Below, in pieces: positions 8,909 through 47,514 of a DNA stretch of 64,000 bases (positions within the stretch are counted from its first letter, which is position 1; every line of letters starts with the position of its first letter). Made by a program: the position numbers and the translations under genes. The stretch comes from Ilumatobacteraceae bacterium (GTDB lineage: Bacteria; Actinomycetota; Acidimicrobiia; Acidimicrobiales; Ilumatobacteraceae). Under the pieces are notes generated by a model that saw nothing but the letters and a program-made list of their open reading frames with translations, did not search any database and had not been told where the DNA came from. The stretch is from the NCBI GenBank assembly GCA_043721915.1, contig JAYSPV010000112.1, positions 6,386 through 70,385 on the forward strand, read 5' to 3'.

Positions 8909-8909
8909 C

Positions 8910-21704: not shown

Positions 21705-24863
<3,159 letters not shown>

Positions 24864-24880
24864 GCCCGGCGGGCCTGCGG

Positions 24881-26395
24881 CTACGGGGTGATGTCGATCA
24901 GACGGCCCGGCAGGAAGCCGACCACGAGCGTGAAGGCAACCGACAGGCCGATCGCGACGCCAAGCAGCGCGGGGACCCGAACGGGCTCGCGTGCGTCGTC
25001 ACCCGCCTCGGGCTCGGCGATCCACATGCTGATCATGATCCGCAGGTAGAGGAAGGCGGCGATCACGGCCGACACCATCGCGATGATGGCGATCGCGTAG
25101 CTGCGCTCTTCCACGGCTGCCTGGATCACGCCGAACTTGGCGACGAACCCGCTGGTGAGCGGCACGCCGGCCTGGGCAAGCAGCAGCACCGTCATCGCCA
25201 GGGCCAGGGCCGGCTTGTTCTTGGCGAGACCGCGGAAACCGGCAAGCCCGGTGTCGGCATCGCCGGTGCGCCCGACGGCAGTGATCACGCCGAAGGTGCC
25301 CATCACCAGCACGGTGTAGATCATCAGATACATCAGCACCGACGAGACACCAGGCCCTGCGATGTCGCCGTCGCTGTGATGTGCCACCGCTTCGACGCCG
25401 ACGAGGATGAAGCCGGCATGGCTGATCGAGGAGAAGGCCAGCATCCGCTTGACGTTGGTCTGCACCACAGCCATCACCGAGCCGCCGACGAGGGTGAGCA
25501 CGGCGATCAGCCAGATCGCCGGCTGATAGTCGTCGCGCCACTGGGGCAACGCCTCCACCAACACCCGCACCAATGCGCCGAATGCCGCGGCCTTGCCTGC
25601 GGATGCCATGAACGCGGTGACCGGGGTGGGGGCACCCTCGTACACATCGGGCGTCCAGAAGTGGAACGGCACGGCCGCAACCTTGAACGCCAAGCCGACC
25701 AACAGCAGGGCAACGCCCGCGAGCACGAGCGCGTCGTTGCGCTTGTCGGTGCCGGTGATCGAGTCGAGTCCACGGACGATCTCGTCGAAACGAGTGCTGC
25801 CCGAGCCGCCGTAGACCAGCGCGACGCCGTAGAGGAAGAACGCCGACGAGAAGCCGCCGAGCACGAAGTACTTGATGCCACTCTCGAGACTCTCGATGCG
25901 CTTGCGATGGCTGGCTGCCATCACGTACATCGAGATCGAGAGGATCTCGAGACCGAGGAAGAGCACGATCAGGTCGTTGGCTGATGCCATGACCACGCCG
26001 CCGAGCGCAGCGAGCATGTACAGCACGTACAGCTCGGGGCCATCGAAGCCCTCGCGCCGCAGGTAGTCGTCGGTGAGCAGGGCAGCGAAGAAGACGGCGA
26101 CGGCAATGGCCAGCGTGAGCCACAATCCGAACTTGTCGAGGTGGATCGCGTCGCCGATCAGGCGGATCGGCCCCTTGTCGTCGACACGGAACCACAGGCT
26201 GACGGACAGCACTCCGGTGGCAACTGCAACGGCAGCCGTGTACAGGGCGTAGCAGCGCTTGGGCCACGCGGGCGTCAGCGAGGCAACGAGCAGCAGGACC
26301 ATGGCCCCACCCAGCAGGACGAGCAGCGGGCTGATCGCGAACCAGTCGATCTTCGGGCCTTGCAGTGTGTCGGCAGCGAACAACGCGCCCATCAC
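24881..26395 (-). CDS. nuoN: NADH-quinone oxidoreductase subunit N (operon 2)
   Basis: 504-aa polytopic ORF with FKVAAVPFHFWTPDVYEGAPTPVTAFMASAGKAAAF and AFSSISHAGFILVG motifs. The start overlaps the nuoM2 stop. Confidence 0.92.
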   Translation of the reverse strand: MMGALFAADTLQGPKIDWFAISPLLVLLGGAMVLLLVASLTPAWPKRCYALYTAAVAVATGVLSVSLWFRVDDKGPIRLIGDAIHLDKFGLWLTLAIAVAVFFAALLTDDYLRREGFDGPELYVLYMLAALGGVVMASANDLIVLFLGLEILSISMYVMAASHRKRIESLESGIKYFVLGGFSSAFFLYGVALVYGGSGSTRFDEIVRGLDSITGTDKRNDALVLAGVALLLVGLAFKVAAVPFHFWTPDVYEGAPTPVTAFMASAGKAAAFGALVRVLVEALPQWRDDYQPAIWLIAVLTLVGGSVMAVVQTNVKRMLAFSSISHAGFILVGVEAVAHHSDGDIAGPGVSSVLMYLMIYTVLVMGTFGVITAVGRTGDADTGLAGFRGLAKNKPALALAMTVLLLAQAGVPLTSGFVAKFGVIQAAVEERSYAIAIIAMVSAVIAAFLYLRIMISMWIAEPEAGDDAREPVRVPALLGVAIGLSVAFTLVVGFLPGRLIDITP

Positions 26396-27957
26396 CCTTC
26401 TCCCTCTTCCGAGGTGGCTTCGGACTCACCCTCGATGACGATGGGTTCCTTCGGGTCGGGCTGGGTGTAGCCGCCCTTGTCCTCGACGTGAGCGATCAGC
26501 TTGTTCACTGCCGGTTCGATGCGGCTGAGCATCGGCTTGGGATAGATGCCGGTGAACACGATCAGGCCGATGAACGGCAACAGCAGTGCAGCTTCCTTCC
26601 ACTTCAGCTCGGCGAACGACTTGTTGTCCTCGTCGGGCTCGCCATGGAACACCCGCTGGTAGGCCCATAGCAGGTAGAGCGAGGCAAGGATCACACCGGT
26701 GGCACCGACGACGACCCACCAGTGGGCCGTTGCGAACGAGCCGATGAGGATCATGAACTCGCCGACGAACCCATTGAGTCCTGGCACGCCGATGCTGGAG
26801 AGCATGATGATCATGAACGCAGCGGCGAACACCGGCGCCACCTTCTGGAGGCCCTTCAGCTTGGCGATCTCACGCGTGTGGCGGCGCTCATAGATCATGC
26901 CGACCATGAGGAACAACGCGCCGGTGGACAAGCCGTGGCTGATGTTCTGGAGCACCGCACCAGACATCGCGGTGGTCGTGACCGCGAACGTGCCGAGCAC
27001 GATGAACCCGAGGTGAGCGACCGACGAATACGCAACCAGACGCTTGAGGTCGGTCTGCATCGTGGCAGCGATCGCGCCCCACAGGATGCCGATCACCGCC
27101 AACGTGAAGAACAGCGGCCGCGCCCACAGCGCGGCTTCGGGGAACAGGTAGACCCCGAAGCGCAACAGCCCGTAGGTACCCATCTTCAACAGCACGCCGG
27201 CGAGGATCACCGAGCCGCCGGTGGGTGCCTGGGTGTGCGCGTCGGGGAGCCACGTGTGCAGCGGGAACAACGGGATCTTCACCGCGAACGCGATCGCGAA
27301 GGCGAAGAACAACCAGCGCCCGGTGGAGGCGGCGAAGTCGGCGTTCTCGGCGATCTTGATCAGGTCGAAGGTGACCGAACCGCCCTCGCCCGCCTTGGCG
27401 AGCACCGCCGTGGCGATGATGCCCACGAGCATGAAGGCCGAGCCGACCATCGTGAACAGGAAGAACTTCGTGGCCGCGTACACGCGGTTGTCGTAGCCCC
27501 AGCCACCGATGAGGAAGTACATCGGCACCAGAACGATTTCGAAGAACACGAAGAACAGGAACAGATCGAGGCTGATGAACGAACCCATCACCCCGGCCTC
27601 GAGCAGCAGCATCCACGACAGGTAGCGCTTGTGGTCGTGGTGCGGATCGATGCCCGCGATCACCAGCGGGAACAGGATGCCGGTGAGTACCACCAGGAAC
27701 AGCGAGATGCCATCCACCCCGAGGTGCCAGGAGATGCCCCACGGCTTGATCCAGCTGTGTTCCGACGTGAACTGAAAGCCGGCATCAGCCGTCTTGAAGG
27801 CGAACAGCACCCACAACGCCATTGCACCGGTGAGCACGCTGGTGAGCAGCGCCGTGATCTTGACGAGATCCGGGTGTCGCTTCGAGATCAGCGCAACAGC
27901 TGCGGCGCCGATCGCCGGCACGAGCACCAGCAGCGTGAGAATCGGGAACTCGATCAC
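26392..27957 (-). CDS. nuoM: NADH-quinone oxidoreductase subunit M (operon 2)
   Basis: FPLHTWLPDAHTQAPTGGSVILAGVLLKMGTYG and AYSSVAHLGFIVLG motifs. GTG 27957 ([10 protein letters not shown]) forms a GTGA overlap with the nuoL2 stop. Confidence 0.9.
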   Translation of the reverse strand: MIEFPILTLLVLVPAIGAAAVALISKRHPDLVKITALLTSVLTGAMALWVLFAFKTADAGFQFTSEHSWIKPWGISWHLGVDGISLFLVVLTGILFPLVIAGIDPHHDHKRYLSWMLLLEAGVMGSFISLDLFLFFVFFEIVLVPMYFLIGGWGYDNRVYAATKFFLFTMVGSAFMLVGIIATAVLAKAGEGGSVTFDLIKIAENADFAASTGRWLFFAFAIAFAVKIPLFPLHTWLPDAHTQAPTGGSVILAGVLLKMGTYGLLRFGVYLFPEAALWARPLFFTLAVIGILWGAIAATMQTDLKRLVAYSSVAHLGFIVLGTFAVTTTAMSGAVLQNISHGLSTGALFLMVGMIYERRHTREIAKLKGLQKVAPVFAAAFMIIMLSSIGVPGLNGFVGEFMILIGSFATAHWWVVVGATGVILASLYLLWAYQRVFHGEPDEDNKSFAELKWKEAALLLPFIGLIVFTGIYPKPMLSRIEPAVNKLIAHVEDKGGYTQPDPKEPIVIEGESEATSEEGEG

Positions 27958-29921
27958 AGCATCCCCCGGACGACGACGAACCACACGAGCAGCATCACGA
28001 CGCCGGCCCCGATGGCCGCCGCGTAGTTGCGGATGTTGCCGCTCTGCAGCAACCTCACCTTGCCGGCGGTGCCGCGGACGAGCGCACCGGTGCCGTTGAC
28101 GGCACCGTCGACGACGTTGGCATCTGCCCACGCGACACCGTCGAAGGCCTTGCGACCGGGTCCGCCCATGAAGTCACTGACCGCCTTGTCGTAGCCCCAG
28201 GCGTTGGCAAGGATCGCCGGCTCGATCGGCTTGGCCTTGTGCTTGGCGTAGACCATGATCGCGGCCGCAATTCCGGCCAGCGCGACCGCGATGGCAACGA
28301 AGGCAAGGATGCCGCTGAGGTCGTACGCGTCGGTGGACAGCGGGTGTTCGCCGAATTCGACGACAGGCTCGAGCCACGCCTCCAGCTTGTGCTGGATGCC
28401 GTAAGGGATCCAGCCCCAGCTGGGCAGTTGGATGAGGCCACCAACGATCGACAGAGCGGCCAACACCACCAGCGGCGCGACCATCGTGGCCGGGCTCTCG
28501 TGCGGGGTGTTGTCGCCACTCGCATGCAGGTCGCCGTGGGCGCCGTGCTCCTCGTGAGCATCCTCCCAGCGGGCCTTGCCGAAGAAGACCATGATCACCT
28601 GGCGGGTCATGTAGTAGGCGGTGAGCAGCGCCGTCGCGAGGCCGACGACGTACAGGACCGGGCTCTTGTCGTAGGCGAACAACAGGATCTCGTCCTTGCT
28701 CCAGAAGCCGGCAAACGGCGGTACGCCGGCGATGGCCAGCCAGCCGATGATGAACGTGCCGGCCGTGATCGGCATCAGCACGCGCAGCGCGCCCATCTTG
28801 CGCATGTCCTGCTCGTGGTGCATGCCGTGGATCACCGAGCCGGAGCCGAGGAAGAGCAGTGCCTTGAAGAACGCATGGGTGACCATGTGGAAGATGGCGG
28901 CCACGTAGGCGCCCGAACCAACGGCCAGGAACATGTACCCCAGCTGACTGACCGTGGAGTACGCGAGCACCTTCTTGATGTCGTTCTGGGCGACAGCGAC
29001 CGTCGCGGCGAACAGCGCCGTTGCGGCACCGACACCGGCGATGATCCAGCCGGCGTACTCGGCGCTCACCGACAGGATCGGGTTGATGCGCACCATCAGG
29101 TAGACACCGGCGGTCACCATCGTTGCTGCATGGATGAGCGCCGATACCGGGGTGGGGCCCTCCATCGCGTCGGGCAGCCACAGGTAGAGCGGCAGCTGGG
29201 CGCTCTTGCCACAGGCGCCGATGAAGCTGAACAGGGCGATCGCCGTGGCCGTGGTCTGGGCCATGCCACCGGCCACACCAACCGACTCTGCAGCGTGGTT
29301 GATCACCGAATAGTCGAGCGAGCCGACGGCCCAGAAGGCGAAGAACATCGCCATCATGAAGCCCCAGTCGCCGACGCGGTTGGTGACGAACGCCTTCTTG
29401 CCAGCGGTGGCTGCGCTGTCCTTCTCGTGCCAGAAGCTGATCAGGAAGTACGAGCAGGTGCCGACGCCTTCCCAACCGAGGAAGGTGACCAGCATGTTCG
29501 AACCGAGCACCAGCATCAGCATGCTGAACGCGAACAGGTTGAGGTACAAGAAAAACTTGCTGAAGCGGTTGTCGCCGTGCATGTAGCCGACGGCGTAGAG
29601 GTGGATCAGCGTGCCGATGCCGGTGACGAACAGGCACATCGTGATGCTCAGCGGATCCGCGAGGAACGCGAGATCGATCGACAGTGAGTTGCCCAACGGC
29701 ACCCACTGGAACAGCGTCTTGACCGCATGTCGCTCTTCGGCGGTCTTCGACATCAGGTCGAAGAACACGCCGACCGTGACGAGGAAGGAGGCCCCCACCA
29801 TCGCTGTGGCGAAATAGCCGGACTTGGGGTCGCCCATCTTGCGGCCGAACACGAGGATGCACAGGAACCCGGCGAGCGGTAGCGCGGGAATCAACCAGAC
29901 GAGGTCGAGCATCGTCATCAA
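27954..29921 (-). CDS. nuoL: NADH-quinone oxidoreductase subunit L (operon 2)
   Basis: 655-aa ORF with [54 protein letters not shown] and [12 protein letters not shown] motifs. Confidence 0.92.
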
Positions 29922-30238
29922 CCCTTCAACTCGGCCATGTCGTCGGTGGTGGCATTGGGCTTGCGGCGCAGGATGGCGACCACGATGCCCAAGCCCACGA
30001 CCACTTCAGCAGCGGCCACGACCATCACGAAGAACACCGTCGTCTGCCCGCCGATGTCGCCCAACCGCCGGGCCAGCGCCACGAAGGTGAGGTTGACCGC
30101 GTTCAGCATCAGCTCGATGCACATGAACAGCACCAACGGGTTGCGGCGCACCATCACACCCACGACGCCGATGGAGAACAGCAGCGCAGCCAGCAGCAGG
30201 TACCACGTGGTGGTCACCTGCCAGATCGAGGCGATCAT
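29918..30238 (-). CDS. nuoK: NADH-quinone oxidoreductase subunit K (operon 2)
   Basis: 106-aa, 3-TM ORF with [18 protein letters not shown]...[19 protein letters not shown]. Confidence 0.9.
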
Positions 30239-30810
30239 CTCGTGCCCACCTCTTCACCGCTGGCCGGGGCGATCTCGCCCGGCTTGGGCTTGCGTGCAAG
30301 CATCACCGTGGCGACCACGGCGATCACCAGCAGCACCGAGGTGAGTTCGAACGCGAGGACGTGATCGCTGAACAGGTCGCGGGCGAGTGCCTTGATGTTG
30401 GAGTTCTGCGGATCGAGCGCCGCAGCCTGCACCGCATCACTCTGCACGACCTCGGGGACCGGCGCTTTGCGAGATGCGATCACTGCCATCCCGATCAGCA
30501 CCAGCAGGCCTGCACCCACCGCGACCGCCGCCGGGCGCTGCACCTTGAACGGCTCGATGCGGAGATCTTCTGCGTTGTCGACGCCGAGCAACATGATCAC
30601 GAACAGGAACAGCACGACGATCGCACCGGCGTACACGATCACCTGGACGGCAGCCAGGAAGTCGGCCTCCATCGAAATGAACAGTACGGCGATGCCGAAC
30701 AGCGTGAGGATCAGGCTGAGCGCGGCGTGCACCGGATGGTTGCGCACGATCACACCGACTGCGCCACCGAGCACCATCGCTCCAGCGACGATGAAGACGA
30801 AGAACTCCAT
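30235..30810 (-). CDS. nuoJ: NADH-quinone oxidoreductase subunit J (operon 2)
   Basis: [78 protein letters not shown] 30810 overlaps the nuoI2 stop (ATGA). The upstream part of the tracked ORF is shadow over nuoI2. Confidence 0.88.
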
Positions 30811-31445
30811 CAGTCCGCCGGCCTCTCTGCGGCGCGCACGCCGTAGCCGAGCTCGTTGCTCCAGCCGACCTCGCCAACGAAGTCGGCGTCGCCGCCCGGC
30901 GACGTGGCGCGCATCCACCCGCTGGTGAGCAGGTCTTCGCCTTCGCGCCAGTCTTCCCATGGCATCTGCTGCGGCTTGCCGTCGTCTCCGACCACCAGTT
31001 CGGCCTTCGTGTAGACGGCGTCCGCGCGGCTGGTGAAGCTGAACTCGAACAGCTTGGTCTCGGTGATCGCCTCGGTCGGGCAGGCCTCGACGCACAGGTC
31101 GCAGTGGATGCAGCGCAGGTAGTTGATCTCGTAGACGAACCCGAAGCGCTCGCCTGGCGACGTGGGGTTCTGCGGATCGTTGTCGGCGCCACGCACCAGG
31201 ATGCACTTCGCCGGGCACACACCGGCGCACAGCTCGCACCCGATGCACTTCTCCATTCCGTCCTCGTACCTGTTGAGTACGTGACGGCCGTGAAGGCGTT
31301 CGGGCTTCGCGATCTTCTCGTCGCGGCCTTCGGTGGCCTTGCCCTTCTTCGCGACGCGACCACCGGAGTAGGAGGTGGTGACGCGCTCGCCACCGAACAC
31401 TTTGTGCTGCTTCAGCGTGACGAGGAATCCATCGAGGTAACCCAT
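30810..31445 (-). CDS. nuoI: NADH-quinone oxidoreductase subunit I (operon 2)
   Basis: [12 protein letters not shown] and [12 protein letters not shown], the two [4Fe-4S] motifs. Confidence 0.92.
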
Positions 31446-32677
31446 CAGAACATCGCCCCCTCTCGTTCACGGTTGCGGGCACTCACCTTGGAAGCCAGAC
31501 GCAGGAGCCCCGCGCCAGCCAGCATCACGAGCAGGCCGATGACACCGGCGACGATGCGCTCCGGCCGCGACCAACCCTTGTCGCTGCCCACCCGGAACAC
31601 GGCGATGAGCATGAACCAGCCCAGCGACAGCGGGATCAGCAGCTTCCAGCCGAGGTTCATCAGCTGGTCGTAGCGCATACGAGGCAGCGTCGCACGGAAC
31701 CATACGTACACGTACAGGAAGACGAGCACCTTCGCCAGCAACCAGACGGTGCCACTGAACGGCCCGAGGAACGACAGCACGTTGGCCAGCCGGCCATCGC
31801 CGAGGCGCAGCGGCTGCGGGCCGCCGAAGAACAACGTGACGATCACGCCGCTCATCGTGATCGTGTTCATGAACTCGGCCAGGAAGAACAGGGCGAACCG
31901 GATGCTGGAGTACTCGGTGTTGAAGCCGCCGACGAGCTCTTGTTCGGCCTCCACCAGATCGAAGGGGGGCCGGTTGAGCTCTGCGGTGGCGGCGATCAGG
32001 AAGATCACGAACGGCAAGACGCCGGTGGCCACCACATGCCAGCGGGTGAAACTGGTCTGCGAGGTGACGATGCCGTTGGTGCTGAGGGTGCCGGCGATGA
32101 GGATCACCGTCGCGAGGCTGAGGCCGAGTGCCGCCTCGTAGCTGACCATCTGAGCCGAGGCCCGGACAGAGCCGAGCAGCGGGTACTTCGAGCCCGAGCT
32201 CCAACCGGCGAGCATGATGCCGTACACGGCGACGCTGGACAACGCCAGCAACAACAGCACACCGACGGGCGGGTCGGCGAGCTGCAGCTTGGTTGCCTTG
32301 CCCAACAAGCTGACGGTGCCGTCCTTGCCGTTGCTGAAATCGCCGCCGAGCGGGATCACACTCCAGACCAGGAACGCCGGCACGAATGCCAGGTACGGCG
32401 CCAGCTTGAACACGAACCGGTTGCTCTTGTCGGGGATCAGATCTTCCTTGAAGAACAGCTTGATGCCGTCGGCGAGCGTCTGCAGCAGGCCCTTCGGGCC
32501 GGCCTTGTTCGGGCCGACGCGGTTCTGCATGTAGGAGATGACCTTGCGCTCGAACCACACCATCAACATGGTGCCGACGAGGCCGACGACGAAGACCACC
32601 AGGACCTTGATCAACACGACCAGGAACGCAGTGCTGAAGGTGGTGATCCCGTCGAGCAGTGGGTCGAGTGCAATCAT
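31445..32677 (-). CDS. nuoH: NADH-quinone oxidoreductase subunit H (operon 2)
   Basis: [37 protein letters not shown] and [26 protein letters not shown] motifs. Confidence 0.92.
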
Positions 32678-36446: not shown

Positions 36447-37057
36447 TTCGCTGCCTCCGGTGCGGGCATCCAGGCCGGCTGGGCCGGCGCGTCGGGTGAT
36501 ACCGCGCCCGCGGCCTTGTCGGCGGGGATCTGCTGGCGCACGCGGGCGAGCGTGCCGTGCGGCGGGATCTCACCAGCGAGGCGACCAGCGGCCAGATCGT
36601 CGATCAGCTGATCGAACGAGGCTGTGGTCATCCGGTGGCAGTGGCGATAGTTGACCTGCATGTTCGGCGCTTCGGTGCACGCTGCCTGGCACTCGGCATG
36701 CTCCAGCGTGAACAGCCCGTCGGCGGTTGTGCCGCCGGCCTTCACACCCAGGCGCTCCTCGGCGTGGTGCATCAGCTCGTCGGCGCCCAGCAGCTGGCAA
36801 CTCATCGTCCCGCAGATGTTGACCAGGTACTTTCCGACCGGCTCGAACTTGAACATCTCGTAGAACGTGGCCGTGCCCAGGATCTCCGCGGAGGTGGCGC
36901 CGACCAGCTCGGCGACATGAGCGATCGCCTCGTTGGTGACGTAACCGTTCTGCTGCTGCGAGAGGTGCAGCAGCGGAATGGCTGCCGAGCGCGCCTTCGG
37001 GTAGCGCCCGATGATCTCCTTGGCCAGGATCACGTTGGCTTCGTTGAGGCGGCTCAT
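36443..37057 (-). CDS. nuoE: NADH-quinone oxidoreductase subunit E (operon 2)
   Basis: MSRLNEANVILAKEIIGRYPKARSAAIPLLHLSQQQNGYV with the 2Fe-2S cysteines in VNICGTMSCQLLG ... ECQAACTEAP. ATG 37057 overlaps the nuoD2 stop. Confidence 0.9.
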   Translation of the reverse strand: MSRLNEANVILAKEIIGRYPKARSAAIPLLHLSQQQNGYVTNEAIAHVAELVGATSAEILGTATFYEMFKFEPVGKYLVNICGTMSCQLLGADELMHHAEERLGVKAGGTTADGLFTLEHAECQAACTEAPNMQVNYRHCHRMTTASFDQLIDDLAAGRLAGEIPPHGTLARVRQQIPADKAAGAVSPDAPAQPAWMPAPEAAK

Positions 37058-38403
37058 CGGTCCACCTCGCCGAGCACGGGGTCGACCGACGAGATGACGG
37101 CGACGGCGTCGGCGACGAGGCCCCCGCGCATCATGTGCGGCAGGCATTGGACGTTGACGAACGATGGCGCACGCACGTGCATCCGGTACGGCGTGGCCGA
37201 ACCATCGCTGGCGATGTAGCAGCCGATCTCGCCACGCGGGCTCTCGATGGCCACGTAGACCTCGCCCTCGGGCACCTTGAAGCCCTCGGTGAAGATCTTG
37301 AAGTGGTGGATGAGCGCTTCCATGCTCTCGTCGATGCGAGCGCGCGGCGGCGGTGTGACCTTCTTGTTCTGGATGCGGTAGTCGCCACCAGGCATCCGAT
37401 CGAGGATCTGGTGCACGATGCGGATGCTCTCGCGGATCTCGTGGAAGCGGATGGCGTACCGATCGAAGGCGTCTCCGTAACTGCCGACGATGACGTCGAA
37501 CTCGACCTCGTCGTAGTGGAGGTAGGGCTGATCGCGACGGAGATCCCACTCGACGCCCGTGCTGCGCAGGATGGGGCCGGTGGCGCCCAGGGCTATCGCC
37601 TCGGCCTGCGTGATCACACCCACACCCTGCAGACGGTCGCGCCAGATCGGCTGACCGGTCATCAGGATGTCGTACTCCTCGAGCCGGGGCGGGATCATCT
37701 CCAGCAGGTGCAATACGTCGTCGCGCCAGCCGGCGGGCAGATCCGCGGCGACACCGCCGGGGCGGATGAAGTTGTGGTTCATCCGCAGGCCGGTGACCTT
37801 CTGAAAGAAGCGCAGCACTTCCTCACGCTCGCGCCAGCCGTAGATCATCATGCTGACGGCACCGAGATCCATGCCGTTGGTGGCCATGAACAACAGGTGC
37901 GATGACATCCGGTTGAGTTCGCTGAGCAGCATGCGCATCCAGACCGCACGCTCGGGGATGTCGCCGTCGATGCCGAGCAGCTTCTCGGTCGCCATGCTGA
38001 ACACGAGCTCGTTGTTCAGCGGGCTGAGGTAGTCCATGCGGGTGACGTTGGTGCCGCCCTGCATGAAGGTGAGCTGCTCGCCCTGCTTCTCCATCCCGGT
38101 GTGCAGGTAGCCGATGATCGGCTTGCAGCGCAGCACGGTTTCGCCCTGCAGCTCGAGCATCAGGCGCAGCACGCCATGGGTGCTGGGATGCTGCGGCCCC
38201 ATGTTGATGATCATGGTCTGATCTTCGGAGGGGTCGACGGGCAGGTCACCCAGCTTGGCGGCATCCGCCTCGCTCATCCGCAGGACTGCGCCGACTTCGC
38301 GCAGCAGCTCGCGAGCCGTCAGCTCGCTACGCGGCTTGAGGCCCTGCTCGGGCTCGTTGCCCTGACGGATGGTCTCGACGATGTTGTGATCGGTGGCGGT
38401 CAT
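37054..38403 (-). CDS. nuoD: NADH-quinone oxidoreductase subunit D (operon 2)
   Basis: MIINMGPQHPSTHGVLRLMLELQGETV and the C-terminal VISSVDPVLGEVDR. The start MTATDHNIV is at 38403. The upstream part of the tracked 655-aa ORF is shadow. Confidence 0.92.
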   Translation of the reverse strand: MTATDHNIVETIRQGNEPEQGLKPRSELTARELLREVGAVLRMSEADAAKLGDLPVDPSEDQTMIINMGPQHPSTHGVLRLMLELQGETVLRCKPIIGYLHTGMEKQGEQLTFMQGGTNVTRMDYLSPLNNELVFSMATEKLLGIDGDIPERAVWMRMLLSELNRMSSHLLFMATNGMDLGAVSMMIYGWREREEVLRFFQKVTGLRMNHNFIRPGGVAADLPAGWRDDVLHLLEMIPPRLEEYDILMTGQPIWRDRLQGVGVITQAEAIALGATGPILRSTGVEWDLRRDQPYLHYDEVEFDVIVGSYGDAFDRYAIRFHEIRESIRIVHQILDRMPGGDYRIQNKKVTPPPRARIDESMEALIHHFKIFTEGFKVPEGEVYVAIESPRGEIGCYIASDGSATPYRMHVRAPSFVNVQCLPHMMRGGLVADAVAVISSVDPVLGEVDR

Positions 38404-38930
38404 TGTGTGCCACTCCTTGCAGCGAAGTTGCCGCTGAACTGCACCGGGATGCAACCGACGTCGTAGTCCTTGCGCAACGGGTGGCCCTCCCAATCCTCTG
38501 GCATCAGGATGCGGGTGAGGTCGGGGTGGTCGTTGAAGACGATGCCGAACATGTCGTACACCTCGCGCTCCATCGCCTCGGTACCCGGATACATGTCGAA
38601 CAGCGTGGCGATCGTGGGGTCGGTGGCGGGCACCTGGACACGCACACGGATGCGTTCGCGCCGCTCCAACGACAACAGGTTGACGACGATCTCGAACCGT
38701 TCGGCAGCGATGCCCGCGGGTAGTATCCGCCCGGGATGCGTGAGGTAGTCGACTGCGGTGAGATCGACACACATCGCGTACGTGTCGTCGAGCAGGGCGC
38801 GTACCGTCTTCGTGTACTCGGATCGGCTGGGATGCAGCACCCGCTGGCCTCGGCTGTCGCTGAGCGGGACACCGTACGCACTGGGCGGCGGTTCGGGCGC
38901 GGCGACCTGTTGCTCGGGAGTGTCGGACAT
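38400..38930 (-). CDS. nuoC: NADH-quinone oxidoreductase subunit C (operon 2)
   Basis: [43 protein letters not shown] signature. The start MSDTPEQQV is at 38930. Confidence 0.88.
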   Translation of the reverse strand: MSDTPEQQVAAPEPPPSAYGVPLSDSRGQRVLHPSRSEYTKTVRALLDDTYAMCVDLTAVDYLTHPGRILPAGIAAERFEIVVNLLSLERRERIRVRVQVPATDPTIATLFDMYPGTEAMEREVYDMFGIVFNDHPDLTRILMPEDWEGHPLRKDYDVGCIPVQFSGNFAARSGTQ

Positions 38931-38932
38931 GG

Positions 38933-39544
38933 TTAGCGGCTTCCCAGGATGACCGGCACCGGCTGTGCACCGGCCGGGATCTCGGTGACGTGCAACCCGG
39001 CACCGGCGCCGGTGGCAGCACGGCGCTTGAGCAGCTCGCCGTCTTCGATCTTCTGGTGCAACGTCTCGATCGCGTGGATCAGCGTCTCGGGGGTCGGTGG
39101 GCACCCCGGTGCGTACACGTCCACGGGCACCACCTGATCGACGCCTTGCACGATCGCGTAGTTGTTGAACATGCCACCGCTGCTGGCACACACGCCCATG
39201 CTGATGACCCACTTCGGTTCCATCATCTGGTCGTAGACCTGGCGCAACACCGGCGCCATCTTCTGGCTGACCCGCCCGGCGACGATCATGATGTCGGCCT
39301 GGCGCGGCGAGGCGCGGAAGACCTCCATGCCGAAGCGGCTGATGTCGTAGTGCGCCGCGCCGGTGGCCATCATCTCGATCGCACAGCAGGCGAGCCCGAA
39401 CGAGGCCGGCCACGAGCTGCGGCTCCGCGCCCAACCGACCAGATCTTCCAGCCTGGCTGTGATCGCGTTGTGAGGGATCGAGCCGATGCCCTCGGGCAGG
39501 ATGTTCTTGAGCTTGTCGACGGCGATCTCAGTGGACGACTTCAT
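38933..39544 (-). CDS. nuoB: NADH-quinone oxidoreductase subunit B (operon 2)
   Basis: [22 protein letters not shown] and APGCPPTPE motifs. The start MKSSTEIAV at 39544 overlaps the nuoA2 stop (ATGA). Confidence 0.92.
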
Positions 39545-40002
39545 GCTGCAGAGTCCTGTGGGCGACCTTCGAGACCGACACGGCGGATGGTGCTGGTGAC
39601 GGTGCGGCCCGGTGACAATGCGGACTCGAGACGCCGCTGCTTCGCGACCGGCCCCCACTCGAGCGCACCACGCGCGACGACGTACACGAATGCGGCGAAG
39701 AAGACCACGCTGAAGGCGATCATCTCCCACAGTGCGTACGAGCCGAGGAACTGGCGATCCACGGCGAACGGGTAGATGAAGATCAGTTCGATGTCGAACA
39801 TGATGAACAGCATCGCGACGACGTAGAACGTGACCGGGAATCGCTCGGGTGGCTCGCGGCTGGGGACGATGCCGCACTCGTACGGCGCCTCCTTCGCAGC
39901 CGACGGGCGCCGAGGCGCGAGCAAGCCGGATGCAAAGAAGCTCAACGCACCGAACAGTGCGGCCAAGACCAGCAATGCGACGATCGGCAGGTATTGGCCC
40001 AT
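39541..40002 (-). CDS. nuoA: NADH-quinone oxidoreductase subunit A (operon 2)
   Basis: [41 protein letters not shown] is typical NuoA. Confidence 0.9.
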
Positions 40003-40005
40003 CGA

Positions 40006-40869
40006 TCAGACCTTCGCCGGAAGTGCCTTGGCCGACCGATTCACTGCGACCCGTCGATCGCGGGTGTGGAGCAGCCAGCACAGCAGCAGGAAGATGATCA
40101 ACGACGAGATACAGATGATGGCGGCCGGCACACGTTTCGCACCCAGGTCGCGGATCATGTAGACGTATTCATGCGACCTCGACGTGTCGATGACCGCCCG
40201 CGCAGGTGCACGACCGGGCTCGGACCGTTGCGGCATCAGCGGCGCGATCTCGACCACTGCGTAGTGCGGCGCGTGGAAGAACGCGAGGAAATCGATCCTG
40301 CCATCCCAGAACTGCGGGCTGCGCTCGCCGCCCTTCTCATAGACAGAGACCACCGTGAACCCGCCGGCGGCGAACGCCTCCGATTCCTCGACGTACACGC
40401 TGCCGGCCGAACCGGCCTGTTGGAACGACGGCAACGCCGAGTTGAGCTGCTTCCAGCCGTTGTAGCTCAACAGCCCGCGCACGCTCTCGGCGTCGGCGAT
40501 TGCATCGTCGGTCATCTCGAAGTTCACATCGAGGATACCGACATCGTTGAGTCGCGACGGCTCACGGATGATCGTCTTGCCGGCAACCGGCTGCCACGAC
40601 GGATCGGGCCCGAGCAGGCCCTTGCCGTACGTCCACCACACCGCGCCCATGATGAACATCCACCCTGCGAGAGCGGTGAGGACGACGAGGAACCCGAGGC
40701 GGGCACCCATGTTGGTACCGAGGATCAGATAGATGCTGCCGCACAAGACGGCCACCGCGATGATCACGATCAGCGTGCCACGCAGCTCCCATTCCCAGGG
40801 CCCGATGGCCGTCTTCGTCACGTTGCCGAGAATGCCGGCGGCTGCCGACGTGAGTGCTGCATGCATCAC
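40006..40869 (-). CDS. Hypothetical membrane protein encoded between the di-haem cytochrome c gene and nuoA2
   Basis: 287-aa ORF. It has two N-terminal hydrophobic helices ([41 protein letters not shown]), a central soluble domain of about 170 aa, and a C-terminal helix ([19 protein letters not shown]). The start overlaps the cytochrome c stop (ATGA), and the stop lies 3 nt before the nuoA2 ATG. I recognise no family. Confidence 0.7.
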
Positions 40870-41942
40870 AGGCTCCGCACGTATTCGACGACGGCTTTGA
40901 TCTGCTCATCGGTGAGCAGATGCCCGAACCCGGGCATCCGGCCCGAACCCTGGCCCTGCACGCCGTACTTGACGCCGTTCTTGGAACCGGCCTTGATGAA
41001 GTTGATCATGTCCTGCTCACTCGGGAAGTGGGAGTTGGTGGCGCCGCCGGTGAGGTTCCAGCCGAACGCGCCCTGCGCCGTCACGCCGGGGTCGCCGTAG
41101 CTCCAGCCGGGAGTGTGACAGCGGGCGCAGCTGTAGGCGCCATACGACAGATCCGAGTTGAACAGGGCTTCGCCCTCGCTGGCACCGGGGTTGGTCGCCA
41201 TGTAGTCGTCGACAGCGCGCTGGATGTCGTCCTTCGTGGTTTGCGGCAGCGTGCCACCGTCACACACGTACGGGTCGGCCTTGTTGACGAACGAATCGTC
41301 GGTGAGGCAGCCCTCGGGCTGGATCTGGATGCTCTTCAGGTAGACGAGCAGGGTTTCGATGTTCTGGGCCGTCATCGGGCCGCCACCTGGTGCACCCCAC
41401 GCGGACATCGGCGAGAACGGCCGGCCGTAGTTGAGGATGAACCGAACCTCTTCCTGGCTGAAGCGGTAGAAGACGGTGTTCAGCGCCGGTGCGTACCAGC
41501 TGACCGCGGTGACTTCGCCCGTCTTCACGTCGGTGATCGCGTAGGGGGCGACGTTGCCGAGACCGCCCAGACCGCCATGGCAGCCTGCGCAGTTGAAACC
41601 ACCGTTGGCGGTGGTTTGGAACAGCTGCTCACCCCACCAACGGAAACGCTCCTGTTCGCCGCTGACAGCGCCGGCCTGTCGGCTGGGCTCGTACGCCCAG
41701 TAGAGCGGCAGTCCGATCACCATCGTCAGCAGCAAGAGCACGCCGAAGACCTGCAAGCGTTCCAACCGCGAGCCCTCGAGGGTCTCGTCGTCGTAGTACG
41801 CCTTGCGGTTGGGCGCCATCTCGACTTCGGAGCCCAGCTCGCTGCGCGCCTTGCCCGAGCTGAGGAAGTAGTAGGTGACCCAGCCGATGACGACGACGGC
41901 GAGGATGACCCATGCCACGGCAACTGTGTTGAGCGCGATCAT
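40866..41942 (-). CDS. qcrC: Membrane-anchored di-haem cytochrome c (QcrC-like)
   Basis: Two CxxCH motifs (CAGCH, CARCH), two N-terminal TM helices, and a C-terminal GSGRMPGFG Met-ligand-like motif. Confidence 0.88.
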   Translation of the reverse strand: MIALNTVAVAWVILAVVVIGWVTYYFLSSGKARSELGSEVEMAPNRKAYYDDETLEGSRLERLQVFGVLLLLTMVIGLPLYWAYEPSRQAGAVSGEQERFRWWGEQLFQTTANGGFNCAGCHGGLGGLGNVAPYAITDVKTGEVTAVSWYAPALNTVFYRFSQEEVRFILNYGRPFSPMSAWGAPGGGPMTAQNIETLLVYLKSIQIQPEGCLTDDSFVNKADPYVCDGGTLPQTTKDDIQRAVDDYMATNPGASEGEALFNSDLSYGAYSCARCHTPGWSYGDPGVTAQGAFGWNLTGGATNSHFPSEQDMINFIKAGSKNGVKYGVQGQGSGRMPGFGHLLTDEQIKAVVEYVRSL

Positions 41943-42820
41943 ATGCAGTGTGGCCCTTCCGCCTCTTGACCAGTGGTGTTGGTGCCGATGGCGGCGCCGA
42001 CCTTGACGGCCGATGTGTCGATGACGACATCACCGGAACCCGAGACCGTGACAGCGAAGTGATCCATCCCTCGAGGGGCAGGACCTGCCTTCTTCTCCCC
42101 GGCGCGGTTGTACTGAGAACCGTGGCAGGGGCATTCGAACCATTGGCTGCTCTTGCACTCGGGAACCCGGCAACCCAGGTGCGGGCACTTCTGGTAGATC
42201 GCAACGACGCCACTCTCCATGCCGCCGATGAGCGTGCTGTACTCCTTGACGCCCTTGGCCTTGGGGAGCGCTTCGGGTGGGTAGACCGTCAGATACGAGC
42301 GCGCGCTGGAGCTGTACAGGAAACCGCCGTTGCTGCGAATGGTAGCCAGCACCTCGGTGAGCTTGCCGATGGTCACCTTGCCGCCGAACACCGGCACCGT
42401 GGTGGGCCACAGGAAGGCAACGAACCCGGCAGCGGCGAACGATGCAAGGCCAGCTGTCATCAGCACGACAGTGGAACGGTTGAGGAACTGGCGACGGTTG
42501 ACGCCGATCTCGTCACGGTCCGGCGGAATCCAGATGCTCGGAGTCATGTCGGGCGCCGGCACGAGTCCCTGGGCGCGCTCGGTGGTTGCGGCACGTTCGA
42601 CATCCCTGCCGGTGGGGGCACTCGGGAGATCGAGGTCTGCGTCGCGATCGCGACGCTTGGTTTCGCGGCTCAGTGCGCCGGCACCGCGGACATCGCTCTT
42701 GCGAGCGGCGGTGAGCAGCACGACGGCCGCCAACACGGCGACCACGACAAGCGCAATGGCAATGATGAGTGCAGGAGTCATGAAAGGGGATGCCTCACAG
42801 TTCGAAGAAGAGACCGTCAC
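41939..42820 (-). CDS. qcrA: Rieske [2Fe-2S] subunit of the cytochrome bc/b6c-type complex
   Basis: CPHLGCRV ... CPCHGSQY Rieske boxes. An internal twin-arginine motif (VNRRQFLN) follows an N-terminal TM helix. The start may be ATG 42781 (MTPALII) rather than 42820. Confidence 0.9.
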   Translation of the reverse strand: MTVSSSNCEASPFMTPALIIAIALVVVAVLAAVVLLTAARKSDVRGAGALSRETKRRDRDADLDLPSAPTGRDVERAATTERAQGLVPAPDMTPSIWIPPDRDEIGVNRRQFLNRSTVVLMTAGLASFAAAGFVAFLWPTTVPVFGGKVTIGKLTEVLATIRSNGGFLYSSSARSYLTVYPPEALPKAKGVKEYSTLIGGMESGVVAIYQKCPHLGCRVPECKSSQWFECPCHGSQYNRAGEKKAGPAPRGMDHFAVTVSGSGDVVIDTSAVKVGAAIGTNTTGQEAEGPHCI

Positions 42821-43565
42821 GCCACGGGAGCGTGAAGTTGAAGCCGGGACCGCGGAAGAACGAGCCGATGATGACGAGCACGGCCCAGAACATCATGTGC
42901 ACCGTCATCAACGACGTCGCGAACTTGCGATCCTCCGGTTTGTTGGAAGGGTTCTTGTCGATGAACGGAGCGAGGATCAGCACGATCATGCCCACGCCGG
43001 GGATGGTGACGCCGGCGATCATCGGGTGGAACATGGTGAGCAGTTCCTGCAGGCCGAGGAAGTACCACGGGGCCTTCGACGGGTTCGGCGTCTTGTTGAT
43101 GTTCGCTTCCTGCAGCAGCGGCGCATTCACGAAGATCGAGAAGAAGAACGTGAACGACATGCACAGCAGGGCGGCCACGAACTCGGCGGCGAGCAGGTGC
43201 GGCCACGTGTGCACCTTGTCGACCGGCGAGGCCTTCACATCCTGGATGCTGCCGCTCTTGACGACGGTGAGCAGCCGTTGGGTGTGGCCGCCAGGGCCAG
43301 CGCCCAGCGGCACGCCGCCACCCGCGGGCGCGGCGGCGACGACGCTGGCCACCTTCTCCATCACGGCAACGCCGCCACCACCTTCTTCGGCCTTGCGGGC
43401 CTTGCTGCGTTCGAGCAGGTGCGCGGGGATGCGCGGGTCCGCTGCCGGCTCGTTGCTGGCCGTGGCAGCGGCGGCAGCCTCGGGCGACGACGCGCCGCTC
43501 TCGGCTGCGGCCTTGTCGCGCGCTGCCTGAGCCCGCTTGAGGAGATGTTCAGGGATTTCGGTCAT
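42795..43565 (-). CDS. Cytochrome b6c/b6f subunit IV-like protein (C-terminal half of cytochrome b) with a roughly 110-aa low-complexity N-terminal extension
   Basis: The core WPHLLAAEFVAALLCMSF...KAPWYFLGLQELL...IAGVTIPGVGMIVLILAPFID matches PetD/subunit IV topology. The extension carries two copies of an IPxHLLxRSxAR motif. Confidence 0.85.
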   Translation of the reverse strand: MTEIPEHLLKRAQAARDKAAAESGASSPEAAAAATASNEPAADPRIPAHLLERSKARKAEEGGGGVAVMEKVASVVAAAPAGGGVPLGAGPGGHTQRLLTVVKSGSIQDVKASPVDKVHTWPHLLAAEFVAALLCMSFTFFFSIFVNAPLLQEANINKTPNPSKAPWYFLGLQELLTMFHPMIAGVTIPGVGMIVLILAPFIDKNPSNKPEDRKFATSLMTVHMMFWAVLVIIGSFFRGPGFNFTLPWRDGLFFEL

Positions 43566-43580
43566 CGTTCGCCTCCTTCT

Positions 43581-44366
43581 CTACAACGGACCCGAGATGC
43601 CGCCGTCTTTGCGGACACGCCAGAAGTGGATGGCCATGAAGATGACGATCACGAACGGCAGCATCAGCACGTGCAACACGTACCACCGCAGCAGCGTGTC
43701 GCCACCGATCTCCTTGCCACCGAGGAGCACGAATCGCACCTTCTCGCCCAGCACCGGGGTGTAGCCCATCATGTTGGTACCCACCGTGACGGCCCACAGC
43801 GCCAGCTGGTCCCACGGGAGCAGGTAGCCGGTGAACGACAGCAGCAGGGTGAGCATCAGCAACACGACGCCGATGACCCAGTTGAACTCGCGCGGCGGCT
43901 TGTACGCGCCGTGGTAAAAGACGCGTGCCATGTGCAGGAACACGCTCAGCACCATCAGGTGCGCACCCCATCGGTGCATGTTGCGCACAAGTAAGCCGAA
44001 CGTCACCGATGTCTGCAGGTTCGAGATGTCGCTCCATGCCTGCACGTCGGTGGGGCGGTAGAAGAACATCAGGAAAATGCCCGTCACCGTCAGCAGGATG
44101 AACAGGAAGAAGCTGAGGCCACCGAGGCACAGGGTGTAGCTGACCTTCACCGCGTGGCGCTTCACCTTCACCGGGTGCAGGTGGTACAGCACCGAGTTCA
44201 TGATCACGTAGCTGCGGTTGCGCGGGCTGTCGGTGTAGCCCTTGCGGAAGATGCTGCCGGGCCGGAAGATGCTGCTCCAGGCCTGGCTGCCCTGCACGCC
44301 GTCGACGCCTTTGGTGAGGCGCTGCTTGACAGTGGGGCGCGGTGTCTCGTCGAGAATTTTTGCCAT
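43581..44366 (-). CDS. qcrB: Cytochrome b6-like subunit (N-terminal four-helix haem-binding half of cytochrome b)
   Basis: Contains LYHLHPVKV. The haem-ligand histidine pairs are in RNMHRWGAHLMVLSVFLHMARVF and LRWYVLHVLMLPFVIVIFMAIHFWRVRKDG. Confidence 0.9.
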   Translation of the reverse strand: MAKILDETPRPTVKQRLTKGVDGVQGSQAWSSIFRPGSIFRKGYTDSPRNRSYVIMNSVLYHLHPVKVKRHAVKVSYTLCLGGLSFFLFILLTVTGIFLMFFYRPTDVQAWSDISNLQTSVTFGLLVRNMHRWGAHLMVLSVFLHMARVFYHGAYKPPREFNWVIGVVLLMLTLLLSFTGYLLPWDQLALWAVTVGTNMMGYTPVLGEKVRFVLLGGKEIGGDTLLRWYVLHVLMLPFVIVIFMAIHFWRVRKDGGISGPL

Positions 44367-44382
44367 CGTTGCTTCGTTTCCC

Positions 44383-44796
44383 TCAGAGCCTCATGCCGTA
44401 GGCATAGCCGTGGCTGTTGGTACGGGTGTGCGAGTCGCCGGCTGCCGCCGGTGCCCCTACTTTGCCCATGATGATCACGCCCGTCGGGCAGCGATCGACA
44501 CACAGTTGGCACCGTGTGCAGATGTCGTCGTCGATGATGAACAGCACCTTGTCGCTCGGGTCGAGCCCGGGCTGCTCGGTGTTGCTGGCCTCGACGATGG
44601 CGTCGGTGGACACCATGTGGATGCACTTCCACGGACAGATGTCGACACAGCCCTCGCACATGATGCACTCGGTCTGGTCGATGTGGATGAACTGCTTGGG
44701 CTTGATCGCCTTCGACAAGTAGTCCGCGTCGACCTCGACGAGTTGGTACTCGTCGGTGTACGGCATCATCGGTGGGTTTGCGTCGGTCTTCGCCAT
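44383..44796 (-). CDS. 2x[4Fe-4S] dicluster ferredoxin-domain protein, encoded second in the Rieske/cyt b operon
   Basis: CIMCEGCVDICP and CTRCQLCVDRCP motifs. The 137-aa protein has no TM segment. Its start lies 3 nt after the upstream stop, and its stop lies 16 nt before the cytochrome b6 start. Confidence 0.85.
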   Translation of the reverse strand: MAKTDANPPMMPYTDEYQLVEVDADYLSKAIKPKQFIHIDQTECIMCEGCVDICPWKCIHMVSTDAIVEASNTEQPGLDPSDKVLFIIDDDICTRCQLCVDRCPTGVIIMGKVGAPAAAGDSHTRTNSHGYAYGMRL

Positions 44797-44799
44797 CGG

Positions 44800-45246
44800 T
44801 CAGCTCTTCTTCACCAGTGGGCGCCCGAAGGTGCTGGTGGCCAGTTCGGTGCCGGGCTTGCCGTCACCGCGCTTCTGCCACAAGCTCCAGAGGAAGATCA
44901 TGATGCCGAAGTACCACAGGTGGATGACGATGACCACGATGTCGCGGATGGCTTCGTACGACATCGTGAACGGGAAGGGACCACCGAGCGCCTTCGGCTT
45001 GAGGAGGTCGAACGGCCCATAGATGATGTTGCTCTTGTCCCACTTGAGATCGACGTCGGCGTGAGCGATGAACTTGTCGGGAACGATGCCGAACGCGACG
45101 AACATCAGGCCGAAGACGTACACGGAGGCGAGCATCGCCTCACCCCAGGACGTGGGCGTGCCCTTCGGGCGGCGCTTGGCGTACGGGATGACGACGAGCG
45201 CTCCGATGGTGGAGATGATGAACGAGAACAGGAATGCTTGATTCAT
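44800..45246 (-). CDS. Hypothetical 3-TM membrane protein, first gene of the Rieske/cyt b operon
   Basis: MNQAFLFSFIISTIGALVVIPYA, AMLASVYVFGLMFVAFGIV and IVVIVIHLWYFGIMIFLWSLW are hydrophobic helices. The start is taken at ATG 45246 inside tracked ORF 44800..45339. Confidence 0.65.
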   Translation of the reverse strand: MNQAFLFSFIISTIGALVVIPYAKRRPKGTPTSWGEAMLASVYVFGLMFVAFGIVPDKFIAHADVDLKWDKSNIIYGPFDLLKPKALGGPFPFTMSYEAIRDIVVIVIHLWYFGIMIFLWSLWQKRGDGKPGTELATSTFGRPLVKKS

Positions 45247-45524
45247 CCCGGGCCACTTCAGAACGTTCCAATCAAATGCGATCAGCACCTGCGCTGCCCT
45301 TCCTCGTGAACTGCTGCACAAACTGTAGCCACGCCACACCGGGTGATTGCCAGTCCGTCTCTAGATCGTGATGAACGGCACACCTCAGGGCACCGGCTCA
45401 TGGTCGCCGGTCTACCACGCGGCGAGCCGCACTTCCCTGGTTGTGAACTCGTGCATCCAAATTTTCTGGCCACGCGTGAGGTGGATTTCCTGCAGCGAGG
45501 CATCGGCCGTCTATCGTTCACTGC
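45247..45524. promoter_or_regulatory. Divergent intergenic region between the Rieske/cyt b-nuo transcription unit and the mono-haem cytochrome c gene
   Basis: This 278-bp non-coding gap separates divergent respiratory genes and is visibly less GC-rich (for example CCAAATTTTCTGG). I cannot place promoters precisely. Confidence 0.4.
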
Positions 45525-47512: not shown

Positions 47513-47514
47513 CC

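Follow-up and report, generated by a model that had tools for sequence, protein, structure and literature searches.

Conserved adjacency of a Rieske/cytochrome b6-type complex and complex I genes in Acidimicrobiia: a candidate respiratory super-operon behind a Rex-operator-like site

Bacterial genes for complex I are not normally linked to those for complex III. Here we describe a block of 21 genes on the minus strand (24881-45246) of a 64,000-nucleotide (nt) stretch of DNA from an Ilumatobacteraceae bacterium of the class Acidimicrobiia (GenBank assembly GCA_043721915.1, contig JAYSPV010000112.1, positions 6,386 to 70,385; hereafter the window, with a GC content of about 65%), in which a seven-gene module for a Rieske/cytochrome b complex (the bc module) runs directly into nuoA-N, the genes of a complete complex I. 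The bc module consists, in this order, of genes for a small membrane protein (orf1), a 2[4Fe-4S] ferredoxin, cytochrome b6, subunit IV, a Rieske protein, a dihaem cytochrome c and a linker membrane protein (mp287). The nuo half of the block is like nuoA-N of Streptomyces coelicolor and S. avermitilis, where the same 14 subunits are encoded in the same order behind a promoter with a palindromic operator of the Rex operator (ROP) type. In S. avermitilis, nuoA1-N1, cyd, atp and rex-hem are under repression by Rex, which NADH releases; the footprinted Streptomyces ROP lies within the nuoA1 promoter itself (PMC5355995). The footprinted Streptomyces Rex sites, TTGTGCACGCGTTCACAA and TTGTGATACGGTTCACGA, closely resemble a palindrome of the window, TTGTGCAGCAGTTCACGA; unlike in Streptomyces nuo, this operator-like site is located 5.3 kb upstream of nuoA, ahead of seven extra genes.

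For the bc half, several described systems come into consideration. Kao and Hunte (2014) defined the APWY clade of cytochrome b complexes, no enzyme of which has been characterized biochemically, named Ilumatobacter coccineum as one of the few Actinobacteria in which cytochrome b is split, and speculated that the complexes of this clade may operate in reverse (PMC4122944). The block has in common with the clade the APWY motif, the CxGG motif and the split cytochrome b, a likeness judged from motifs; linkage to nuo, the ferredoxin, orf1 and mp287 are not mentioned in the papers on the clade. Like cytochrome b6f and the b6c complex of Firmicutes, the block encodes b6 and subunit IV separately, with the CxGG cysteine and 14 residues between the helix-D histidines. 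It departs from these complexes in its Qo motif, which reads APWY where they have PEWY or PDWY, and in its c subunit, a free-standing dihaem protein with two transmembrane (TM) helices that is neither a cytochrome f nor a fusion of subunit IV with a cytochrome c. Also different are the gene order, b6-subunit IV-Rieske-cytochrome c, and subunit IV, which carries a long extension at its N-terminus and has diverged too far to match PetD in the PDB. With the actinobacterial QcrCAB (bcc) complex the block shares a dihaem c-type electron exit, whereas its cluster partner is complex I and not an oxidase as in the qcr-cta clusters and the CIII2CIV2 supercomplex. The Rieske/cytochrome b operons of the anammox bacterium Kuenenia, the complexes of which we infer to belong to the same broad cytochrome b subfamily, encode an extra cytoplasmic iron-sulfur protein, as the block does. 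Unlike the iron-sulfur/NAD(P) oxidoreductase subunits of Kuenenia, however, the ferredoxin of the block has 137 amino acids (aa) and lacks an NAD(P)-binding domain, and the enzyme handling NADH is a complete, separate complex I.

The initial annotation of the window had described the block as 21 tightly spaced minus-strand genes, including a b6-type cytochrome b and a complete 14-subunit nuo set. All 21 genes were recovered, with Pfam or NCBIfam family matches for every one except orf1 and mp287, and the gene identities were borne out by these matches and by the closest solved relatives of the cytochrome b6 (Table 1). Each of NuoA-N, in the canonical order, matches its family model, and the NADH-oxidizing N-module (NuoE, NuoF with the FMN/NADH site, and NuoG) is encoded within the block. 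The spacing is as tight as was claimed: with the best-supported starts, 14 of the 20 junctions are overlaps of 1 or 4 nt and the other six are gaps of 2-16 nt, so that all lie within -4 to +16 nt, and the stop codon of mp287 is indeed separated from the ATG of nuoA by 3 nt. For the Rieske gene we prefer the start at ATG 42781, which leaves a 13-nt gap after subunit IV, because orthologues are called at 273-288 aa and the tblastn alignments of relatives begin at or near that residue. The start of mp287 is placed at the overlap with the cytochrome c gene (40869/40866), the alternative GTG at 40821 (44-nt gap) being less likely; in relatives that lack the 16-residue extension of mp287, its start is still at the cytochrome c stop. 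In the rest of the window, neighbouring genes of one strand lie farther apart, mostly by 13-94 nt. Upstream, the block is limited by a divergent intergenic region and, downstream, by a convergent gene that ends 17 nt from the nuoN stop (24864-24880); no terminator-like hairpin was detected between the two convergent stops.

The composition of the bc module points to a b6-type complex, apparently of the APWY clade. The two cytochrome b family models fall on separate adjacent genes (PF00033 on b6, PF00032 on subunit IV), and the closest solved relatives of the b6 protein are chloroplast and cyanobacterial b6 (168 bits) as against 83-88 bits for actinobacterial (mycobacterial and corynebacterial) QcrB. 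The alignment with solved b6 covers residues 75-261 and includes the bis-histidine pairs for two b haems; Cys80 in the CxGG motif (TLCLGG) aligns with Cys35 in the CLGG of spinach b6, the haem-ci/cn cysteine, and can thus be predicted to attach this haem. Subunit IV carries the APWY motif (in NPSKAPWYFLGLQ) behind a cytoplasmic N-terminal extension of about 120 aa. The Rieske protein combines the cluster boxes CPHLGC and CPCHGSQY with an extra N-terminal TM helix and a RRQFL motif resembling twin-arginine (Tat) signals; its second box (CPCH-G-S-Q-Y) has the S-Y signature, which the rule given in PMC4122944 assigns to the high-potential type. The dihaem cytochrome c contains CAGCH at residue 118 and CARCH at residue 272, preceded by two N-terminal TM helices. 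It has no sequence relative in the PDB, QcrC included, and its AF2 model is poor (pLDDT 50.8, too low for fold comparison). A search at E<=1e-3 yielded 3849 relatives of this protein, and the organism-named ones among the matches listed are all from Acidimicrobiia/Actinomycetota. The bc module probably falls within subfamily G of Dibrova et al. (2017). Two more specific identities were considered and rejected. For actinobacterial QcrCAB, the QcrB and QcrA models score far below their cut-offs (NF050120, 119.7 versus 500, and NF050121, 21.5 versus 275, respectively), and the gene order is b6-subunit IV-Rieske-cytochrome c, not qcrC-A-B. For the Geobacter ExtOPQ system, the ExtP model passes (310 versus 290) while ExtQ fails (50.5 versus 150), and no multihaem cytochromes or porin, as in the Geobacter Ext context, are found near the block; the ExtP name is not transferable because the ExtQ model is not matched and the Ext context is absent.

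The adjacency of the bc and nuo genes is an old, stable feature of Acidimicrobiia. Scanning the b6 protein against one genome per species gave 80 loci, all with b6 of at least 86% identity and hence close relatives only, onto which all window proteins were mapped; 61 of these loci had sufficient downstream DNA. The order b6-subunit IV-Rieske-cytochrome c-mp287-nuoA, with the following nuo genes, is found in 58 of the 61. Of the three exceptions, locus L060 is a frameshifted assembly in which synteny is nonetheless kept, the 266-nt value between mp287 and nuoA stemming from the frameshifts, and the other two (L036, 10001-10786; L061, 10001-10771) are orphan b6 paralogues, 87-88% identical to the b6 of the window, in an unrelated context (an ECF sigma factor and a short-chain dehydrogenase), near which no ferredoxin, subunit IV or Rieske gene was found. 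Across species the gap between mp287 and nuoA has a median of 3 nt and is at most 20 nt in 59 of 63 loci, and for the cytochrome c/mp287 junction the median is -2.5 nt. The divergent monohaem cytochrome c gene is present in nearly all related loci. For a wider reach, mp287 was searched against 50%-identity representatives, which gave 645 clusters at E<=1e-3, and a 31%-identical member was then used as a new query; seven long contigs were inspected. The full arrangement, divergent cytochrome c included, is kept in all seven of these distant loci, at identities to the window of 28-33% for mp287, 32-40% for orf1, 38-45% for the dihaem cytochrome, 70-77% for NuoD and 83-87% for b6. In one of them, L087 (GCA_975250585.1, 8916-13217), the nuo genes stop after nuoD and are followed by Wzy_C and an ABC transporter, yet the bc-mp287-nuoABCD linkage is intact despite the split nuo set. 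The search for such synteny in related Acidimicrobiia, proposed with the initial annotation, thus turned out strongly positive.

That the arrangement reflects a chance rearrangement, or an error in the assembly or binning of a single genome, is a notion to which we give practically no weight. The window does probably come from a metagenome-assembled genome (MAG), but the same order recurs in dozens of independent assemblies, including a 5.26-Mb single chromosome (L005) and contigs of 0.5-1.6 Mb, which refutes an artefact; both order and spacing recur in the 58 of 61 and the seven of seven loci, so neither chance nor misassembly accounts for the adjacency. The 80 best loci and the named linker relatives are overwhelmingly labelled as Ilumatobacteraceae, Acidimicrobiales or Acidimicrobiia MAGs. 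The same Acidimicrobiia-type cluster, with a b6 of 89% identity, also occurs in three loci (L043, L049 and L064) from records titled as Gammaproteobacteria, Phycisphaeraceae and Bifidobacterium MAGs; these titles are probably binning or labelling errors in public records.

The intergenic region between orf1 and the divergent cytochrome c gene contains the candidate control elements of the block. In 70 orthologous intergenic regions the blocks CACAACC, ACGATAGAC, CTACAGT and TTCACGAG recur. The palindrome TTGTGCAGCAGTTCACGA differs from the Rex operator consensus TTGTGAANNNNTTCACAA by two mismatches, and the window as a whole holds three matches to TTGTGAANNNNTTCACAA at up to three mismatches, compared to 0.61 expected. 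The -10-like hexamer that directly adjoins the palindrome is a putative promoter element, and the same juxtaposition, TAnnGT and then T[TC]GTGCA, is seen in many relatives. When a degenerate ROP pattern was scanned, at up to two mismatches, across 78 related loci, the 350 nt upstream of orf1 yielded 58 matches in 27.3 kb (2.1 per kb), distributed over 43 of the 78 loci, whereas the remainder of these loci yielded 42 in 1205 kb (0.035 per kb), an enrichment of about 60-fold; in the 350 nt upstream of nuoA there were none in 21.7 kb. Hence a palindrome close to TTGTGAANNNNTTCACAA is located at the candidate promoter and conserved in orthologous promoters, the sequence hallmark of a Rex regulon, and Rex binding here is putative. 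An operator before the bc genes and none before nuoA is what a single Rex-controlled transcription unit predicts, and the nuo-type operator has apparently been relocated to the front of the bc genes. A pattern that describes this local operator better than the strict Rex core is T[TC]GTG[CA]A-N4-TTCAC[GA]A. The junctions are too short to accommodate a terminator, and between positions 24000 and 47500 the frequency of terminator-like hairpins does not exceed that in shuffled sequence, none falling at any junction; thus, no obvious terminator splits the block. No Rfam element was found in the window.

The same intergenic region serves the divergent gene. On the plus strand (45512-45527), the divergent cytochrome c gene has a -10-like hexamer too, TATCGT, at a distance of 7 nt before its GTG start codon, and about 40 of the 70 orthologous intergenic regions conserve the block ACGATAGAC. 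The position of TATCGT, together with the conservation of ACGATAGAC, suggests that the mRNA of this cytochrome c is leaderless.

Taken together, these observations make it fairly probable, in our assessment, that the block represents a conserved respiratory super-operon in which the NADH:menaquinone and menaquinol:cytochrome c oxidoreductases are co-expressed from one promoter responsive to the NADH/NAD+ ratio, for electron flow in the forward direction. Under this proposal, transcription of the whole block would start at a promoter ahead of orf1, within the divergent intergenic region, and a Rex-type operator overlapping this promoter would respond to the NADH/NAD+ ratio; because a single Rex-overlapped promoter would drive the block, the two oxidoreductases would be switched on together, and the overlapping stop and start codons might help to balance the synthesis of the subunits. 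Of the parts of this scheme, the single transcript is well supported, if deduced from the sequence; the identity of the regulator as Rex is suggested by the operator-like site, and the direction, from NADH to cytochrome c, is presumed. The claim of the initial annotation that the block forms one translationally coupled unit is accordingly strengthened in part, namely by the ROP-like site before the bc genes, its absence before nuoA and the lack of excess hairpins, while the single polycistron and the translational coupling themselves continue to be read from gene layout; the stoichiometric co-expression and the physical I+III assembly suggested along with that claim are hypothetical.

Several observations weigh against this proposal. 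Promoters of Actinobacteria are weakly defined, and a scan with the sigma-70 consensus between 24000 and 47500 detected no promoter-like site anywhere, the proposed promoter included, the consensus being uninformative for an actinobacterium of 65% GC. An internal promoter within mp287 or the cytochrome c gene is possible. Only 43 of the 78 relatives have a ROP-like site at up to two mismatches, the strict core TGTG-N8-CACA is present in only five of the 70 intergenic regions, and in a few relatives (L021, L037, L086 and L088) nuoA is preceded by a gap of 48-71 nt. Furthermore, the operating direction of APWY-type complexes has been questioned (PMC4122944).

These longer gaps, together with the uninformative promoter scan, are also what could be cited for two adjacent but separately expressed modules, in which nuoA-N would be driven by a promoter of its own, located towards the 3' end of the mp287 or cytochrome c coding sequence, and genome compaction would account for the tight spacing; long respiratory operons commonly have internal promoters. 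We regard such an arrangement as rather unlikely, given that the junction measures at most 20 nt in 59 of the 63 species and persists where the linker is down to about 30% identity, that no locus has a ROP-like site in the 350 nt before nuoA while the nuo-type operator stands before orf1, and that same-strand neighbours elsewhere in the window are not packed in this way. Read-through from the upstream promoter and an internal nuo promoter could coexist.

The block is set apart by orf1, the ferredoxin and mp287, three lineage-specific proteins that occur at the same place in every related locus and may be subunits or assembly factors of the encoded complexes. Orf1, conserved as the first gene in all related loci down to 32-40% identity, has no sequence match in Pfam, NCBIfam or the PDB. 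The ferredoxin contains two CxxCxxCxxxCP motifs, is 66-87% identical in all relatives and gives weak NuoI-like matches in NCBIfam, below the cut-off; its lack of a signal peptide and of TM helices predicts a cytoplasmic location, on the haem-ci side of the complex. Mp287, which in the loci examined always occupies the boundary between the dihaem cytochrome c gene and nuoA, likewise has no sequence match in Pfam, NCBIfam or the PDB; its AF2 model (pLDDT 84.3) consists of three TM helices and an alpha/beta domain, with no fold match in the PDB at E<=1e-3.

A short peptide, [TA]-E-[IV]-P-[ED]-H-L-L-[KRQ]-R-[SA] (the HLL peptide), begins at residue 2 of both subunit IV and the divergent monohaem cytochrome c. 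Its sites are at 43565 and 43430 on the minus strand (subunit IV) and at 45525 on the plus strand (monohaem cytochrome c, TEIPEHLLKR); subunit IV thus has two (I/V)PxHLLxR copies, the second, internal one being RIPAHLLERS. Among 28 diverse copies the P, H, L, L and R are invariant, and the peptide is kept in the distant loci. The two genes differ at third codon positions, which points to selection at the protein level. A search of the PDB with the motif returned only a chance match in PcrA. Conceivably, the HLL peptide may be a docking motif.

The fixed partners raise the question of physical association, an extension of the super-operon proposal in which complex I and the b6c complex would form a supercomplex acting as a dedicated NADH:cytochrome c oxidoreductase encoded by one operon. 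In such an assembly the bridging or docking parts could be mp287, orf1, the ferredoxin at the haem-ci side and the HLL peptide shared by subunit IV and the monohaem cytochrome c. The block has three conserved proteins without assigned function firmly built in; one of them, mp287, for which no family or fold relative was found, occupies the very border between the bc and nuo genes, and this junction survives even in L087 with its split nuo set. Moreover, the clustering of qcr with cta in other Actinobacteria parallels the III-IV supercomplex, a precedent for gene clusters that mirror supercomplexes. Nevertheless, the argument for association is one from gene order, co-regulation suffices to explain the layout, and associations of complexes I and III are known elsewhere without any need of shared operons. 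We therefore consider the supercomplex doubtful, and the assignment of bridging roles to these particular parts equally so.

The presumed direction of electron flow can also be inverted. If the block were a module for reverse electron transport, menaquinone would receive its electrons from cytochrome c, and NDH-1, likewise reversed, would produce NADH from high-potential donors such as Fe(II); the module would then resemble the uphill pathway of Acidithiobacillus ferrooxidans through the petI bc1 complex and NDH-1. Some Acidimicrobiia do oxidize iron, and the Rieske protein bears the high-potential S-Y signature. However, a Rex-type operator would imply induction at high NADH, which fits the oxidation of NADH and not its production, and the block is kept in many freshwater, soil and marine MAGs of Ilumatobacteraceae, a group generally regarded as aerobic heterotrophs. 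Reverse operation was proposed for the APWY clade by Kao and Hunte (PMC4122944), but it lacks biochemical support even in the originally proposed cases (PMC4122944). Both in its general form and in the likeness to the petI pathway, this scheme appears very improbable to us.

The catalytic parts of the block are all of known kinds. What appears to be new is their class-wide fusion, the apparent relocation of the nuo-type operator and the association of three function-unassigned partners with an uncharacterized bc subtype; the literature provides a weak negative in this respect, in that the open-access texts on cytochrome b phylogeny and gene neighbourhoods (PMC5600118, PMC4122944), on complex I phylogenomics (PMC4453560) and on the respiratory clusters of Acidimicrobiia mention no bc-nuo operon, associated ferredoxin or mp287. 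If the super-operon proposal is true, the tight, class-wide fusion of normally unlinked genes behind one operator of an NADH-sensing type would provide a clear example from nature of a respiratory segment, from NADH to cytochrome c, under joint control. With this arrangement it becomes possible to test whether the two enzymes are controlled, and perhaps also assembled, together, and Ilumatobacter offers a culturable entry point to the function of APWY-type Rieske/b6 complexes. It also bears on I+III supercomplexes in bacteria outside Proteobacteria and on the role of the three conserved proteins, including a ferredoxin attached to a b6 of the haem-ci type. Acidimicrobiia are abundant in freshwater, soil, marine and wastewater habitats, which would lend this respiratory design ecological weight.

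Table 1. Positions of the block genes, candidate control elements and neighbouring genes in the window
Feature	Position	Strand	Remarks
nuoN2	16-1428	-	second complex-I-type cluster
nuoM2	1452-3059	-	second complex-I-type cluster
nuoL2	3073-5334	-	second complex-I-type cluster
nuoH2	6687-7736	-	second complex-I-type cluster; directly after nuoD2
nuoD2	7736-8965	-	second complex-I-type cluster
nuoA2	10138-10542	-	second complex-I-type cluster
BNR/sortilin-domain gene	21705-24863	+	1052 aa; convergent to nuoN
nuoN	24881-26395	-	last gene of block; PF00361; NCBIfam NuoN TIGR01770, 405.7 bits versus cut-off 332.6
nuoM	26392-27957	-	PF00361; 4-nt overlap
nuoL	27954-29921	-	PF00361 and PF00662; 1-4 nt overlap
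nuoK	29918-30238	-	PF00420; 4-nt overlap
nuoJ	30235-30810	-	PF00499; 1-nt overlap
nuoI	30810-31445	-	Fer4 families; 1-nt overlap
nuoH	31445-32677	-	PF00146; 1-nt overlap
nuoG	32677-35049	-	PF13510, PF10588, PF22117, PF00384; 1-nt overlap
nuoF	35049-36446	-	PF01512 and PF10589; 4-nt overlap
nuoE	36443-37057	-	PF01257; 4-nt overlap
nuoD	37054-38403	-	PF00346; 4-nt overlap
nuoC	38400-38930	-	PF00329; 2-nt gap
nuoB	38933-39544	-	PF01058; 4-nt overlap
nuoA	39541-40002	-	PF00507; 3-nt gap from mp287
mp287	40006-40869	-	287-aa membrane protein between bc genes and nuoA
dihaem c-type cytochrome	40866-41942	-	358 aa; Pfam cytochrome c on second domain
Rieske iron-sulfur protein	41939-42781	-	280 aa; PF00355
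subunit IV	42795-43565	-	256 aa; PF00032
cytochrome b6	43581-44366	-	261 aa; PF00033 at 8e-47
2[4Fe-4S] ferredoxin	44383-44796	-	137 aa; Pfam Fer4 families
orf1	44800-45246	-	148 aa; first gene of block; three predicted TM helices
divergent intergenic control region	45247-45524		278 nt; monohaem cytochrome c gene to orf1
Rex-operator-like palindrome TTGTGCAGCAGTTCACGA	45304-45321	-	58-75 nt upstream of orf1 ATG
-10-like hexamer TACAGT	45322-45327	-	actinobacterial TAnnnT type; directly adjoins TTGTGCAGCAGTTCACGA; putative promoter element
monohaem cytochrome c	45525-46319	+	264 aa; Pfam Cytochrom_C; divergent from orf1
geranylgeranyl-reductase-like flavoprotein	47476-48798	+	flanks block
polyprenyl synthetase	49595-50575	-	flanks block

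Among the neighbouring genes, the divergent monohaem cytochrome c has its haem motif, CQGCH, at residue 113 and a single TM helix at 73-91, which makes it a membrane-anchored protein. Beyond it, the gene for a geranylgeranyl-reductase-like flavoprotein stands beside the block in most relatives, including six of the seven distant loci; such a gene presumably also neighbours nuoA in other Actinobacteria, and the bc genes might have been inserted between an ancestral pair of this kind. This flavoprotein and the polyprenyl synthetase are plausibly involved in menaquinone side-chain chemistry, and the region as a whole looks like a respiratory island.

The window also contains a paralogous complex-I-type cluster (16-10542, minus strand) with the genes A2, B2, C2, D2, H2, I2, J2, K2, L2, M2 and N2, the products of which are 25-46% identical to those of the main nuo set. 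Because nuoD2 runs directly into nuoH2, this cluster would encode an 11-subunit enzyme without the NADH-binding NuoEFG. Two further Rex-operator-like sequences are located here, GTGTGAATGGCTCCACAA (10525-10542) at the 5' end of the cluster and TGGTGAAGAACTCCACCA (10937-10954) about 400 nt upstream of that end, and both complex-I-type clusters may be under the same redox control.

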